A stretch of 64,000 bases of DNA, taken from positions 11,290-75,289 of the forward strand of contig JAJYLZ010000008.1 in assembly GCA_021787395.1 (NCBI GenBank), written 5' to 3'. The DNA is from Chloroflexota bacterium. GTDB taxonomy: Bacteria; Chloroflexota; Limnocylindria; Limnocylindrales; CSP1-4. The notes beneath the pieces were generated by a model. It saw nothing but the letters and a program-made list of their open reading frames with translations. It had not been told where the DNA came from and did no database searches. Made by a program: the position numbers and the translations under genes. Positions 1 through 4,655 of the stretch are shown here, in pieces. Every line of letters begins with the position of its first letter. The stretch's first letter is position 1.

Positions 1-44
1 CTGCAGGGCACGCGCGTCGGCCGCCTGCCCCGCCAGCGTGGGGG

Positions 45-74
45 TTGACTCGGCCGGGACCCGCCGAGTAGACT
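45..74 (+). promoter_or_regulatory. sigma70-type promoter TTGACT-N18-TAGACT
   Basis: TTGACT at 45-50 and TAGACT at 69-74; predicted transcription start near 80, at the 5' end of the structured RNA. Confidence 0.65.
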
Positions 75-79
75 CCCGG

Positions 80-250
80 TCGGTCGAGCAGGTCGCTCGG
101 CACGTCCTACTACCGGAGGCGAACGCCAGATGGTGCAGAACGCATTCCTCTGCCCGAGCACGTCGGCGCCCATCGGCGCTGCCGTTGACGGGAGGAGTGT
201 GCCCACCGCAGGGTAGGACGCGGGGCGAGAGCCCCAGGAGCGACCACCGA
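80..250 (+). ncRNA. candidate structured ncRNA or cis-regulatory leader (unassigned; partial resemblance to raiA-motif core)
   Basis: Nested helices read directly: 80-84/246-250, 91-98/238-245, 103-110/213-220, 141-150/192-201; hairpins 118-127, 166-179 and GGGGC-GAGA-GCCCC (222-235, GNRA loop); flanked by a promoter and a terminator-like hairpin. Confidence 0.6.
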
Positions 251-286
251 GCCGTGGGCCACCAAGCCCGCGGCTCAAGTGTTTTT
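249..286 (+). terminator. intrinsic terminator-like hairpin
   Basis: GAGCCGTGGGC (249-259) / GCCCGCGGCTC (266-276) followed by AAGTGTTTTT. Confidence 0.5.
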
Positions 287-417
287 CGGGGCTGATCACG
301 CCCCCGAGACGCGAGCCGCAGGCTCCCGGACTTCCGGGCCCGCGGCTCGTCCCATGTCTGGGACCCGTGGCCCGGCTCGCGAACTCACCGAGCCACTGCA
401 ACCGCAAGGAGGGTCCC

Positions 418-1308
418 GTGACCACCACCCTCGCGCCCGAACTGAACATCGCCCGCCCGGCGTTCGAGGACGCCGCCGCGTCCGCGAGCGCGACCGTGGC
501 CACGGCGCCGGCCCTGCTCGTCGAGCACGTCACCAAGCGCTTCCGGCCCGACCGCCGCAAGGCACCCGTCCTCGCGATCGCCGATGTCTCGCTCCGCCTG
601 GAGCGCGGCTCGATCCACGGGGTCCTGGGCGCCAACGGCTCCGGGAAGTCCACCCTGATCCGCCTGGTCTCCGGGCTGCTCACGCTGGACGAGGGCCGGG
701 TCGAGGTGTTCGGCCTCGACATCGAGCGTGACGAGCTCGCGGTCAAGCGGCTCATCAACCGGGTCAGCGTGGACGCGGCGTTCTTCAAGAAGCTGAGCCC
801 CATGGAGAACCTGCTGTTCGCCGCCCGCCTGTACGGCCTCGAGGCCGAGGCGTCACGGCGAGCGGCGACGAGGATTCTCGGCCGGCTCGGCATCGCGCAG
901 AGCCGCCTCGGCCGCCCGATCGAGCAGATGAGCCGGGGCATGCAGCAGAAGGTCGCCATCGCGCGGGCGCTGCTGACGAGCCCGACCCTGCTGCTGCTCG
1001 ACGAGCCGACCACCGGCCTCGACCCGCGCAGCAAGCTCGAGGTCCAGGCGTTCATCGAGGAGGTGAATGCGATGCACGACGCGACGATCGTCCTGACCAC
1101 GCACGACCTGGCCGAGGCTGAGCGCCTGTGCGACCGCATCACGCTCCTGCGCGGGGGCCGCGTGGTCGCCGAGGGCACCACGCCCGAGCTCAAGCGCCTG
1201 GTCGCCGAGCGGTACGGGCAGCCCGAGACGCTCGAGGCCGTGTTCATGACGTTCACCGGCCGCTCCCTCGACGACGACGTCGAGGAGGACGGCGAGACCG
1301 ACGACTGA
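418..1308 (+). CDS. ABC exporter ATP-binding protein (DrrA/NodI-like)
   Basis: Walker A GANGSGKST, signature MSRGMQQ, Walker B LLLLDEPT; GTG at 418 behind an AAGGAGG RBS. Confidence 0.92.
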   Translation: MTTTLAPELNIARPAFEDAAASASATVATAPALLVEHVTKRFRPDRRKAPVLAIADVSLRLERGSIHGVLGANGSGKSTLIRLVSGLLTLDEGRVEVFGLDIERDELAVKRLINRVSVDAAFFKKLSPMENLLFAARLYGLEAEASRRAATRILGRLGIAQSRLGRPIEQMSRGMQQKVAIARALLTSPTLLLLDEPTTGLDPRSKLEVQAFIEEVNAMHDATIVLTTHDLAEAERLCDRITLLRGGRVVAEGTTPELKRLVAERYGQPETLEAVFMTFTGRSLDDDVEEDGETDD

Positions 1309-1328
1309 AGGGCGAAAGGAGGTCCGCG

Positions 1329-1400
1329 ATGACGACGCACCGAGACCCGCAGCCCCGCCGGCATCAGGCCACCCCCTTCCGAGAGGACAACCCGACATGA
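1329..1400 (+). CDS. micro-ORF, 23 aa (MTTHRDPQPRRHQATPFREDNPT)
   Basis: Strong RBS AAAGGAGG at 1315-1322; stop overlaps the next ATG (ATGA). Confidence 0.4.
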   Translation: MTTHRDPQPRRHQATPFREDNPT

Positions 1401-1597
1401 CCACCATCGACTTCCGATACGCCGTGATGAAGGAGCGCCAACCCCGCTACCGACCCGAGGCCGAGCACGAGCGCGAGGCCCGGGCCGCGCAGCGGCCCAT
1501 CCGCCGCCGGGTGGGCGCCTCGATCATCCGGTTCGGCCAGAGAGTGGCTGGAGAAGCCGTGCGCGATGCGCTCCTCGACTCCTCCGCCCCCGCCTGA
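1397..1597 (+). CDS. small hypothetical protein, 66 aa
   Basis: GAGGA RBS; basic/helical sequence; translationally coupled to the upstream micro-ORF. Confidence 0.65.
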   Translation: MTTIDFRYAVMKERQPRYRPEAEHEREARAAQRPIRRRVGASIIRFGQRVAGEAVRDALLDSSAPA

Positions 1598-1678
1598 CGA
1601 GATGACCCTCCCGTCGGGCCCGCGTGCCGCGCCGGGCCGATCCGGCCCGGCGCGCCCCCTCCTGAAAGGAACCCTCCG

Positions 1679-2482
1679 TTGGCCCTCATCACGTCCGAGC
1701 TGAAGGCGTCGTACGCCTTCGTCGAACGCAACTTCTTCCTCACCCGGCGCTACTGGGGGTGGGAGCTGGCGTTCCTCGTCTACTCCGTCGCGGGCGCGCT
1801 GTCGATCAGCCTGATCGGCGCCGCGGCCGGCGACGACCGCCTGCTGCTCACGCTCATCATCGGCGCGGTGTTCTGGAACTACCTGTCGGTGGTGTTCAGC
1901 TGGATCGCCGACACGATCTCGGTGGAGCGCTGGGAGGGGACGCTCGAGTACACCTTCATGGCCCCGGTCCGCCGCTGGACCCAGCTGCTGGGCTCGTGCC
2001 TGTACGCGATGGCGTACGGCCTGGTCCACACCGCGGCCATGCTGCTCGTGCTCCTGGTGTTCTTCCCGCAGCTCCGGCCCGAGTCGATGAACCTGCTCAC
2101 CGCGGCCGGCTTCGTCCTGCTGGGCTCGTTCAGCTTCGTGGGCATCGGCATGATGGCCGCCATCCTGCCGCTGCTGTACGTCGAGCGCGGCGCGCAGATG
2201 ACGTTCGTGATCCAGTCCTGCCTGCTGCTGGTCTCCGGGGTCTACTACCCGGTCAGCGTCCTGCCGGGCTGGATGCAGGTGCTCTCGCACCTCTCGCCGG
2301 CGACGTACGTCCTGGCGGGGGTGCGGGCCGGCCTGCTCGACGGGACGCCGGTCACCGGGCTGTGGGGCGACGTCCTGCCGCTGATCGCGATGGGCATCGT
2401 CCTGATCCCGGCCGGCCTCTGGGCGTTCGGCCGGGCCGAGCGCTACGCCAAGCGCACCGGCAAGCTCAAGCGGGTGGGCTGA
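1679..2482 (+). CDS. ABC-2 type exporter permease
   Basis: About 6 TM helices; ERWEGTLE and SGVYYPVSVLP motifs; TTG start behind AAAGGA. Confidence 0.9.
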   Translation: MALITSELKASYAFVERNFFLTRRYWGWELAFLVYSVAGALSISLIGAAAGDDRLLLTLIIGAVFWNYLSVVFSWIADTISVERWEGTLEYTFMAPVRRWTQLLGSCLYAMAYGLVHTAAMLLVLLVFFPQLRPESMNLLTAAGFVLLGSFSFVGIGMMAAILPLLYVERGAQMTFVIQSCLLLVSGVYYPVSVLPGWMQVLSHLSPATYVLAGVRAGLLDGTPVTGLWGDVLPLIAMGIVLIPAGLWAFGRAERYAKRTGKLKRVG

Positions 2483-2484
2483 CG

Positions 2485-3621
2485 ATGGACGGACCCGAGC
2501 CCGGCCTCGCCGGCGCCTGCCCCGCTCCCCTGCCCGTCCCGGTCGGCCTCGGCTGGGACGAGGCCTGGGCCGCCGGCTTCGTCCCGTTCGCGGACGGACG
2601 CCGTCGGCCTGGCCGGGTGGTCGCCGCCCACCGCGGCGCCTGGATCCTCGCCCTCGAGGACGGCGACCGCGACGCGGTCCTGGCCGGCCGGCTCCGGCAC
2701 GAGGCCGTCCGGCCGGGCGACCTGCCTGCCGTGGGCGACTGGGTGGCCGCCGAGGCCGAGCCCGCCGCACACGGCCCGGCGGTCATCTCGGCGATCCTCC
2801 CCCGCCGCACCGTGTTCCGGCGCGCCTCCGACGACGGCACCGCCAGCTCCGAGCAGGTCCTCGCCGCGAACGTGGACGTCACCCTCGTCGTCACCGGCCT
2901 CGACGGCGACTTCAACCCGCGCCGCCTCGAGCGCTACCTCGCCGTCGCCTGGAGCGGCGGCACGACGCCGGTGATCCTGCTCAACAAGTCGGACGCGGCG
3001 GTGGACCCGGAGGCGGCGCGGACCGCGACCCTGGGCGTCGCGCCCGGCGTGGACGTGCGGCTGATCTCCGCGCTTGCCGGGACGGGCCTGGACGACCTCG
3101 CCCGCGACCACCTGAGCCCCGGGCGCACGGCGGTGGTCCTGGGCTCGTCGGGCGCCGGCAAGTCCACGCTGCTCAACGCCCTGCTGGGCGAGGAGCGTGC
3201 GCGGACGGGCGCCGTCCGCGCCGACGACGGCCGCGGGCGCCACACGACCACCCATCGCGAGCTCCACCGCCTGCCGGGCGGCGGTCTGCTCATCGACACG
3301 CCCGGGATCCGGTCGATCGGCGTCGCCGGCGCCGACGCTGGCCTGACGGCCGCCTTCGCGGACGTGGCCGAGCTCGCCGCCAGCTGCCGGTTCGCCGACT
3401 GCCGGCACCAGGGGGAGCCGGGCTGCGCGGTGCAGGCCGCGCTGGGCGAGGGACGGCTGTCGCCGGCGAGGCTCGCGGCCCACCGCAAGCTCGAGCGCGA
3501 GGCGGCCCATGCGGCGCGCCAGGCGGACCGCCTCCTGCGCGAGGCGGACCGCCGCAAGTGGAAGGCGATCAGCACCGCGGCACGGGAGCACGTGGCGCGC
3601 AAGTACGGGAGGGAATCCTGA
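2485..3621 (+). CDS. rsgA: ribosome small subunit-dependent GTPase A
   Basis: Circularly permuted GTPase: NKSD, GSSGAGKST, GRHTTT, DTPG, Zn-finger CRFADCRH..EPGC; start placed at ATG 2485. Confidence 0.95.
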   Translation: MDGPEPGLAGACPAPLPVPVGLGWDEAWAAGFVPFADGRRRPGRVVAAHRGAWILALEDGDRDAVLAGRLRHEAVRPGDLPAVGDWVAAEAEPAAHGPAVISAILPRRTVFRRASDDGTASSEQVLAANVDVTLVVTGLDGDFNPRRLERYLAVAWSGGTTPVILLNKSDAAVDPEAARTATLGVAPGVDVRLISALAGTGLDDLARDHLSPGRTAVVLGSSGAGKSTLLNALLGEERARTGAVRADDGRGRHTTTHRELHRLPGGGLLIDTPGIRSIGVAGADAGLTAAFADVAELAASCRFADCRHQGEPGCAVQAALGEGRLSPARLAAHRKLEREAAHAARQADRLLREADRRKWKAISTAAREHVARKYGRES

Positions 3622-4655
3622 TGGAACTTGAAGCCGCCCTGCCCGACGGCGTTGCCTTCCGCTCGGGAACGGCCGCCGACTGGCCGCTGCTGGCCCAGCT
3701 CTTCAACGAGGACCATCGGGGCAACGGCATCGACGAGCGGGAGTCGGCCGACAACCTGGCTGGCATGTTCGAGGCCGATCCCAGGTTCGCCATGGACCGC
3801 GACGTGCGCATCGCCGAGGCGCACGGGGAGGCCGTCGGCTTCTCGCTGGGCCGCGTGCGCGAGCGCGACCAGACCCTGGTCGGCGAGACGTGGGGCGCGG
3901 TGGTGCCCGCATGGCGGCGCCGCGGCATCGGGTCCGCGCTCCTGTGGCGGGCGATTGCGGCACTCGAGCCCCTCATGGAGGACGACCCGCGGCCCTGGCC
4001 GCGGGAGCTGCGCAACTGGGCCGACGACGTCGAGACCGGGACCATCGCGCTCTACCGCTCAGCGGGCTACCTCCCGATCAGGTACGGGTTCGCGATGCGC
4101 CGGCCCTTGTCCGGCCAGCTGCCGGAGCACCCGCTGCCGGCGGGCCTCGAGCTCAGGCCCGCGACGGAGCGCCAATCCCGGGCGATCTTCGAGGCCGAGG
4201 CCGAGGCCTTCCGCGACCACTGGGGCCACGAGGAGCCCACCGACGCCCTGTTCGCCTCGTGGTACAGCGATCCCGAGCTCGACCCGAGCCTCTGGGAGGT
4301 GGCCTGGGACGGCGACGAGATCGCGGGTGTCGTGCTCGGGATGATCCGGACTCGCGAGAACGAGGAGCTGGGCGTCCGCCGCGGCTGGCTGGACCGCGTG
4401 TCGGTCCGCCGGCCCTGGCGCGGCCGGGGCCTCGCCAAGGCGCTGTGCGCCGCGTCGTTCCGGGCCCTGCGCGAGCGGGGCATGGACGAGGCGTGGCTGG
4501 GCGTGGACGGCGCGAACCCCACCGGGGCGCTCCAGCTCTACGAGGGGCTCGGCTTCCACGTGGCGCGCCGCTGGACGGTCTACGGCCGGCCGCTCGACCG
4601 ACCTGCCCCGCAGGGCTGGCGGAGCGCCGGCGATCGCGGGACCATGGGGCCATGA
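3621..4655 (+). CDS. tandem-domain GNAT N-acetyltransferase
   Basis: Two acetyl-CoA-binding motifs (WRRRGIG, WRGRGLA) and NPTGALQLYEGLGF; ATGA overlap with rsgA. Confidence 0.85.
   Translation: MELEAALPDGVAFRSGTAADWPLLAQLFNEDHRGNGIDERESADNLAGMFEADPRFAMDRDVRIAEAHGEAVGFSLGRVRERDQTLVGETWGAVVPAWRRRGIGSALLWRAIAALEPLMEDDPRPWPRELRNWADDVETGTIALYRSAGYLPIRYGFAMRRPLSGQLPEHPLPAGLELRPATERQSRAIFEAEAEAFRDHWGHEEPTDALFASWYSDPELDPSLWEVAWDGDEIAGVVLGMIRTRENEELGVRRGWLDRVSVRRPWRGRGLAKALCAASFRALRERGMDEAWLGVDGANPTGALQLYEGLGFHVARRWTVYGRPLDRPAPQGWRSAGDRGTMGP

Follow-up and report, generated by a model that had tools for sequence, protein, structure and literature searches.

A probable leader-peptide transcription attenuator upstream of an ABC-2 exporter operon in Limnocylindria (Chloroflexota)

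The DNA analysed here is a stretch of 64,000 nucleotides (nt) from a Chloroflexota bacterium (contig JAJYLZ010000008.1), referred to below as the window. Near its start lies a promoter-driven RNA leader, followed by the genes of an ABC-2 exporter. We conclude that this leader is very probably a ribosome-mediated (leader-peptide) transcription attenuator that controls the exporter operon. The mechanism is a classical one; the leader family itself is absent from Rfam. The initial annotation of the region, made from the letters of the sequence, missed both the 28-codon open reading frame (ORF) at 130-216, preceded by a Shine-Dalgarno (SD) sequence, and the antiterminator that is built on the end of that ORF. 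The parts of the leader are as follows.

45-74, + strand: promoter-like site, with -35 TTGACT at 45-50, a spacer of 18 nt and -10 TAGACT at 69-74
81-129, + strand: 5′ untranslated region (UTR), carrying the 5′ strands of long-range helices (91-98, 103-110) and the SD GGAGG at 115-119
130-216, + strand: leader ORF of 28 codons plus TAG at 214-216, with the SD GGAGG at 115-119, encoding MVQNAFLCPSTSAPIGAAVDGRSVPTAG
190-207, + strand: antiterminator 5′ strand (region 2), GGGAGGAGTGTGCCCACC, corresponding to leader codons -8 to -3
C206-G201 with G254-C259, + strand: antiterminator pairs between the ORF strand and the terminator region
G199-G197 with C260-C262, + strand: antiterminator pairs between the same two regions
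G192-G190 with C267-C269, + strand: antiterminator pairs between the same two regions
249-285, + strand: intrinsic terminator, stem 249-259/266-276 extended by flanking pairs, U-run at 281-285

Homologues were gathered by an ATPase search of species-representative genomes, which gave 80 loci. Nearly all of these come from metagenome-assembled genomes that carry the label Chloroflexota, Chloroflexia or Candidatus Limnocylindria, so that an actinobacterial origin of the window is ruled out. The leader was found upstream of the orthologous ABC ATPase at 79 of the 80 loci in a profile search with nhmmer, and the remaining locus is cut off, with just 28 nt of upstream sequence. By the same kind of search the 64-kb window contains a single copy. 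Metagenome contigs were scanned by pattern and yielded at least 120 matches; among the matches listed, 85 fit the leader profile and 103 had enough downstream DNA to be followed. The ATPase lay directly downstream in 70 of these 103 (at least 70 contigs), 31 others were off-profile chance matches, and two fit only the 3′ half of the profile. No leader of this family was found before genes other than the ABC operon among the 103 metagenome matches checked. The window sequence itself occurs in mine-drainage metagenomes, and a DNA contig from one such run is identical to window positions 1-535. Conservation of the element ahead of one and the same gene, at 79 of the 80 loci, shows that it is more than a chance feature, and the promoter-driven structured RNA that the initial annotation had placed ahead of an ABC exporter is confirmed as real, structured and conserved. 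Its further statement, that this RNA fits none of the common known families, agrees with a cmscan search run with permissive filters on window positions 1-3000, in which none of the 4227 families of Rfam 15 matched the element at E<=1. A full-text literature search, in which coverage of the literature was incomplete, found no published description of the leader family.

The antiterminator strand at 190-207 is complementary to the top of the terminator 5′ arm, the terminator loop and the first C residues of the 3′ arm (254-269). These terminator positions are shared with the antiterminator 3′ strand, and either of the two structures, antiterminator or terminator (249-276 with its U-run), excludes the other. 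The antiterminator duplex is predicted at -20 to -27 kcal/mol at every locus. Compensatory sets were seen between codon -6 of the ORF and the terminator loop, in which codon TCT occurs with loop AGATC, TCC with GGATC, GGT with ACC, ACC with GGTC, and AGT with ACTGATC; in the clade with terminator arm CCGGAGGGCC, GCCCA:UGGGC is replaced by GCCCU:AGGGC. In 26 of 51 relatives the terminator stem carries a mismatch at the invariant U255 of the terminator 5′ arm, a residue that the antiterminator places in a Watson-Crick pair (A-U in 36 of 53 sequences, U-A in four).

Covariation was scored on 53 distinct sequences in which the two strands, anchored on GCCC/GGG, were spliced ungapped through an AAAAA linker; the splicing is artificial, and the letters are all genomic. 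Anchored ungapped segments were used because the loop gaps introduced by MAFFT are arbitrary and hide helices, and RNAalifold run on the plain MAFFT alignment of the family found the terminator as its sole helix. In the anchored alignment 80.7% of antiterminator cells were paired (shuffles 74.5±0.6%), 33 cells carried double changes (shuffles 9.0±2.2) and the covariation score was 0.189 (shuffles 0.093±0.008), the observed value being reached by none of 500 shuffles in each case. When the partner strand was slid by 1-3 columns the score was 0.024-0.067. All of these figures come from related sequences, and hence no probabilities are attached to them.

An SD-preceded ORF starting with ATG or GTG, 25-34 codons in length and ending at the conserved block, is present in 151 of 161 elements, with TAG as stop codon in 118, TGA in 28 and TAA in five. 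Its length varies by whole codons only. The SD before the start codon (GGAGG, AGGAG or GAGG) is conserved in relatives, and GGAGG-ATG-TAG/TGA can be seen in the family alignment. We infer that the leader ORF is translated. Its C-terminus appears to be conserved as G-R-S-V/A-P-x-x-x-stop in most loci, and the sequences of the 5′ UTR and of the first half of the ORF are strongly variable across the family. Codon positions 1, 2 and 3 of the leader are equally variable (entropies 0.88, 0.95 and 0.83). Of 67 sequences, 63 encode the Arg of the block by AGA or AGG and all 67 encode its Pro by CCC, an unusual usage for a genome with a third-position G+C content (GC3) above 0.9; at codon -6, bases 1 and 2 vary (TCT, GGT, AGT, TTT, GCT, ACT) and base 3 is constantly T. 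A divergent clade reads the block, GGGAGATC(C/T)GTGCCCTTCG, in another frame to give ...AGDPCPS-stop, and there too the ORF ends at the block. About eight loci are of this kind (L017, L037, L050, L053, L064, L074 and L078 among the genomes, L182 among the metagenomes), and their ORFs stop 19 nt after the first G of the block (16 nt in L182), as against 24 nt elsewhere. Because the block is read in another frame at these loci, its conservation lies in the RNA and not in the peptide. The clade amounts to a natural experiment that parts RNA constraint from peptide constraint.

The promoter TTGACT-N18-TAGACT, reported in the initial annotation, is present at 45-74 and is the sole promoter-like site in positions 1-600, where shuffled sequences are expected to hold 0.0. 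The -10 element (TAGACT/TAGNAT) is nearly invariant across the family alignment (A1), and a matching promoter geometry was found in three relatives from three other clades. Transcription should start near 81. A scan limited to the sigma-70 consensus found no second promoter-like site between the terminator and the ABC gene in the window or in three relatives; with a single promoter-like site, located before the leader, the operon should therefore depend on read-through. The terminator-like hairpin that had also been reported occupies 249-276, with a T-run after it. Folded alone, its stem reaches approximately 238-287 and the U-run abuts it (-27.6 kcal/mol, z-score -3.8), and among relatives 94% of its cells are paired. 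Soil metatranscriptome contigs of relatives cover positions 95-285 and 123-276, and that of one relative spans 113-539, across the terminator, as read-through would; these contigs are short and may derive from carried-over DNA.

The minimum free energy (MFE) fold of 70-295 reaches -116.8 kcal/mol (z -3.65), and none of 200 shuffles folds as well; the fold of the opposite strand is weaker (z -2.36). This fold holds nested helices, among them the following.

91-98 with 238-245, + strand: long-range helix, GGTCGCTC with GAGCGACC, complementary segments in the MFE fold
103-110 with 213-220, + strand: long-range helix, CGTCCTAC with GTAGGACG, joining the 5′ UTR to the stop-codon region
141-150 with 192-201, + strand: long-range helix, CGCATTCCTC with GAGGAGTGTG, sequestering the antiterminator strand (segments 1:2)

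The nested long-range helices had been drawn in the initial annotation, with the start of the first (91-98 with 238-245) off by a single base. In the family alignment the three have 70%, 59% and 53% of their cells paired. Of what had been put forward for checking by conservation and covariation, the element as a whole is conserved and its antiterminator covaries, and the long-range helices themselves covary weakly (score 0.141, against 0.116 for shuffles and up to 0.107 when slid). As drawn, these three helices are largely a feature of the clade to which the window belongs. On the predicted energies the nested fold would best be read as the terminator-permitting (anti-antiterminator) conformation.

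We modelled the effect of a ribosome on these folds. The MFE structure of the full leader (81-285, -109.8 kcal/mol) consists of the nested fold plus the terminator. In nascent RNA comprising 81-265, the nested fold stays in place without a ribosome and 141-150 sequesters 190-207. A ribosome placed with codon 8 in its P site allows the antiterminator to form, and one with the stop codon in its A site prevents this. Across the family, nascent folds predict the antiterminator for every ribosome position upstream of about codon L-10, and zero antiterminator for a ribosome on the last ~9 codons, the latter by construction, as the mask covers the strand.

These predictions suggest the following scheme. 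Transcription would start near 81, at the only promoter-like site, and produce a leader carrying the 28-codon ORF. If a ribosome has reached the end of the ORF by the time polymerase makes the terminator, 190-207 would be covered, the terminator would form, and transcription would stop after ~205 nt. If the ribosome falls behind or is stalled within the first ~17 codons, 190-207 would be left free, the antiterminator would form first, and read-through would reach the genes for the ATPase, a small protein, the permease, RsgA and the GNAT protein. In the window's clade a third state is predicted, in which, with no ribosome on the leader, the nested fold would sequester 190-207 and the terminator would form, a default-off logic like that of trp. 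The logic common to the family would be that a ribosome pacing the polymerase leads to termination, and that a late, early-stalled or absent ribosome leads to read-through.

Several results count against attenuation by the ribosome, or against parts of the scheme. When the antiterminator state is forced in the window, its energy is -96.5 kcal/mol, 13 kcal/mol less stable than the MFE structure. Equilibrium folding of the full-length leader with a ribosome mask at each codon lets the terminator win almost everywhere, in the window and in most relatives. As the terminator is preferred at equilibrium, the decision must be kinetic, and we infer from the models that competition in time between antiterminator and terminator would decide the outcome. 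In most clades outside that of the window no ribosome is needed for the antiterminator to be predicted, and no conserved anti-antiterminator partner for 190-207 was found across clades (best upstream segment -18.7 kcal/mol, shuffles -18.2 kcal/mol). The clades differ in the ribosome-free prediction, so that a two-state or a three-state logic would be clade-dependent. The SD-to-ATG spacing in the window, 10 nt, is longish. No regulatory codon run or arrest motif shared among the leaders was found, and a macrolide-type +x+ motif, considered as a universal stall site, was rejected as just weakly enriched: [RK]x[RK] occurs in 32 of 146 leaders (shuffles 22±3.8) and is absent from the window's leader. 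Three small metatranscriptomes of the organism itself gave zero coverage of the leader, and the metatranscriptome contigs of relatives, being short and possibly DNA, are weak evidence.

Another explanation is a riboswitch, or an RNA sensing a protein or a tRNA, whose 5′ multi-helix part would select between antiterminator and terminator while the ORF was incidental. We consider this improbable, although it survives better than the other alternatives. It bears mainly on the following structures.

160-185, + strand: mid-ORF hairpin, core CGGCGCC at 164-170 with GGCGCTG at 175-181, encoding an A-P-x-G-A stretch
222-235, + strand: hairpin P4, GGGGC-GAGA-GCCCC with a GNRA loop, between the stop codon and the terminator
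5′ UTR/stop-region pair: CTAGCTC with GAGCTAG
5′ UTR/stop-region pair: CGTCAC with GTGACG
5′ UTR/stop-region pair: GAGTCAYC with GGTGACTC
5′ UTR/stop-region pair: CCGTTACC with GGTAGCGG

The mid-ORF hairpin appears in the folds of every clade with differing sequences (GCGCC/GGCGC, GCACC/GGTGC, GCCGCCC/GGGGCTGGC). Double changes were found in eight of its 10 pairs, yet just 66% of its cells are paired in the MAFFT alignment; it may be a pause or synchronising hairpin. P4, which had been noted earlier as a GNRA-capped hairpin, is present in the window and forms part of its MFE fold, and all clades have a hairpin at its place with a different stem (GGCGGC...GCCGCC). In most clades a 5′ UTR segment pairs with the leader stop region, tracking its sequence (TAG versus TGA); the duplexes average -17.0 kcal/mol for cognate partners, compared with -15.2 kcal/mol for non-cognate partners and -14.5±0.4 kcal/mol for shuffled UTRs (permutation p<0.0002). 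Conservation of these three elements as structures with different sequences would suit a sensing RNA, as would the stable fold (z -3.65), the conservation of the block at the RNA level, and the antiterminator/terminator platform, which is what riboswitches use. The ORF, however, cannot readily be incidental, given that 151 of 161 elements retain the SD, the start and an in-frame stop, that lengths change by whole codons, and that the ORF ends at the antiterminator strand even where its frame differs. A block of conserved unpaired nucleotides of the kind expected for an aptamer core was not seen; the invariant positions of the 3′ half lie in antiterminator and terminator pairs, and the 5′ UTR and first half of the ORF are the variable parts. 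RNAalifold gives the terminator only, and a match in Rfam is absent. The new riboswitch suggested in the initial annotation was thus not borne out: nothing points to a ligand-binding aptamer, and the conservation of the 3′ half is accounted for by antiterminator, terminator and ORF.

The layout of promoter, SD-preceded ORF, strong terminator and transporter recalls peptide and bacteriocin loci, and the ORF might be a small-peptide gene with its own promoter and a leaky terminator. Its product could be a peptide for export or signalling, a precursor of bacteriocin type or a small regulator of the pump, with the transporter exporting the peptide or protecting against it. The apparent conservation of the C-terminal G-R-S-V/A-P-x-x-x-stop in most loci agrees with this, as does the retention of Ser at two positions by codons of both the TCN and the AGY family. 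Set against these points are the approximately eight loci that give an unrelated C-terminus (...GDPCPS) by the other frame, and codon -6 (Ser, Gly, Phe, Thr or Ala), which changes with the terminator loop and not with peptide chemistry. The signature of third-position wobble is absent, the N-terminal half is poorly conserved, and the leader peptide has no Pfam-type or NCBIfam match. Nor does the conserved neighbourhood contain a modification enzyme, a peptidase-domain transporter or a receptor gene. A peptide gene therefore appears even less probable than a riboswitch. A conserved arrest peptide, G-R-S-V-P-x-x-x-stop, was also considered as the main constraint, and was ruled out by the other-frame clade together with the covariation of codon -6 and the loop.

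Least probable of all, to the point of being very unlikely, is a raiA-motif variant or another free-standing trans-acting small RNA of ~205 nt: the element is a discrete promoter-to-terminator unit, 5′-3′ pairing in its terminated fold should stabilise it, and terminated attenuator RNAs can act in trans (rnTrpL of Sinorhizobium is reported to do so), but it has no Rfam match at E<=1, raiA included, its cis linkage to a single operon is constant, it has one copy in the 64-kb window, and any activity in trans would come on top of attenuation, not in its place. The new class of free-standing RNA proposed initially is unlikely also in that the sigma-70 scan found no further promoter-like site ahead of the ABC gene. 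The window element resembles raiA motif RNA in being structured, ~200 nt long and from a high-GC bacterium, and in a few look-alike short strings, and it differs in its conserved ORF, its antiterminator/terminator switch and its tie to one ABC operon. The three raiA-like strings themselves do stand where they had been reported, and membership of the raiA family fails the covariance-model test. It was rejected also on other grounds: the initial annotation had found no partner for the raiA pseudoknot, and the strings lie in the leader ORF, where they are explained by the constraints of ORF and antiterminator.

Leader-peptide attenuation, the preferred explanation, has its classical form in the E. 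coli leaders trpL, hisL, pheL and thrL, which control amino-acid operons through four segments pairing as 1:2, 2:3 and 3:4. In the window, 141-150/192-201 corresponds to 1:2, 190-207/254-269 to 2:3 and 249-259/266-276 to 3:4, and in the predicted folds 2:3 is favoured when the ribosome is near the start of the ORF and 3:4 when it has reached the end. The window leader has no sequence in common with trpL, and it differs from this type in having no regulatory codon run and in preceding genes that are not biosynthetic. The 1:2 partner varies between clades of the family, and the pairing of a 5′ UTR segment with the stop-codon region lies outside the classical design. As for trans activity of the kind reported for rnTrpL of Sinorhizobium, the terminated window RNA (~205 nt) might share it.

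By analogy, the closest functional case appears to be bmrB-bmrCD of Bacillus subtilis, in which a leader peptide controls a multidrug ABC transporter by ribosome-mediated attenuation, expression of bmrCD requires translation of the leader, and antibiotics targeting protein synthesis induce it (Reilman et al. 2014, PMC4191407). The two systems share a short leader ORF, alternative stem-loops including an intrinsic terminator, and an ABC exporter downstream. Their sequences are unrelated, and the window leader, known from sequence alone, comes from another phylum (Chloroflexota). Its pump is of the ABC-2 type (DrrAB-like) with separate ATPase and permease, whereas bmrCD is a heterodimeric type-I exporter. 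The window terminator lies ~33 nt past the leader stop, in contrast to the bmr terminator, which reportedly lies inside the ORF, and the window operon additionally carries genes for RsgA and a tandem GNAT protein.

Five genes follow the leader.

418-1308, + strand: DrrA-like ABC ATPase, GTG start; best NCBIfam match DrrA, below the model cut-off
1397-1597, + strand: small basic protein between ATPase and permease, of no known family
1679-2482, + strand: ABC-2 permease, downstream of the small protein gene
2485-3621, + strand: RsgA GTPase (30S biogenesis), 144.5 bits against TIGR00157 (cut-off 100)
3621-4655, + strand: tandem-GNAT acetyltransferase, downstream of the RsgA gene

At the permease/RsgA/GNAT junctions the genes are 2 nt apart or overlap, and the RsgA and GNAT genes are probably in the same operon as the exporter. 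Within 3-kb flanks, RsgA follows the permease at 58 of the 80 loci and GNAT at 53 of the 80, and the order of the two varies. Among solved structures, those nearest to the GNAT protein (7q3a and 3tt2) belong to uncharacterised acetyltransferases. In relatives of different clades the small basic protein is 66-100 amino acids long and shares an RSIRRRVGxSLVRxGxRVAGE-like stretch; Pfam and NCBIfam searches gave no match for this protein (1397-1597) or for the leader peptide.

A pump resembling drug exporters, a 30S-associated GTPase and an acetyltransferase, all placed behind a sensor of ribosome progress, point to translation stress. By analogy with known systems, the chances are about even that the signal would be slowed or inhibited translation, as caused for example by ribosome-targeting antibiotics. 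A more elaborate version is possible but doubtful. In it the leader would be the cis sensor of a dedicated translation-stress regulon of Limnocylindria (ABC-2 exporter, RsgA, tandem GNAT); the 5′ UTR helix would cover the stop codon and perhaps time ribosome release, a hairpin copying the terminator might relay read-through to translation of the first pump gene, and the ~205-nt RNA might act in trans like rnTrpL.

If slowed translation does switch the operon on, environmental bacteria would possess here a self-contained response to antibiotics or translation stress. The leader offers a concrete and testable regulatory mechanism for the Limnocylindria (Chloroflexota), which are abundant and uncultured in soil and freshwater and in which gene control is almost undescribed. 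Leaders of this kind are easily mistaken for riboswitches or small RNAs and carry ORFs too short for gene callers, so that a description of the family would improve the annotation of well over 100 loci. The general significance is moderate, because the mechanism is classical.

A further conserved structure lies between the terminator and the ATPase gene.

312-366, + strand: second conserved hairpin, consisting of a hairpin at 312-349 followed by GTCCCATGTCTGGGAC(CC), with no U-run

The arms of the hairpin at 312-349 are nearly identical to those of the terminator (GAGCCGC.../...GCGGCTC), and a strict pattern recovers the hairpin at no fewer than 43 of 70 loci. Its 5′ arm is predicted to be able to pair with the terminator 3′ arm in transcripts that have read through. 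The sequence GGGACCC at 360-366 is complementary to GGGTCCC at 411-417, which adjoins the SD and the GTG start of the ABC gene; the pairing is a prediction. Together, 312-366 and 406-420 may form a second, translational layer of control.

The window begins just 44 nt ahead of the leader promoter. Upstream of this promoter in three relatives of clade 1 (L002, L006 and L008) is a divergently transcribed lipoprotein-like gene, and in other clades the genes at this position are different. One of the two metagenome matches that fit only the 3′ half of the leader profile (L111:9090-9520) is a decayed copy of the element, in which promoter, leader and terminator are still recognisable. Its leader stop has been lost (TAG to CAG), and its ABC gene is reduced to the first ~30 codons, beyond which lie genes on the opposite strand.

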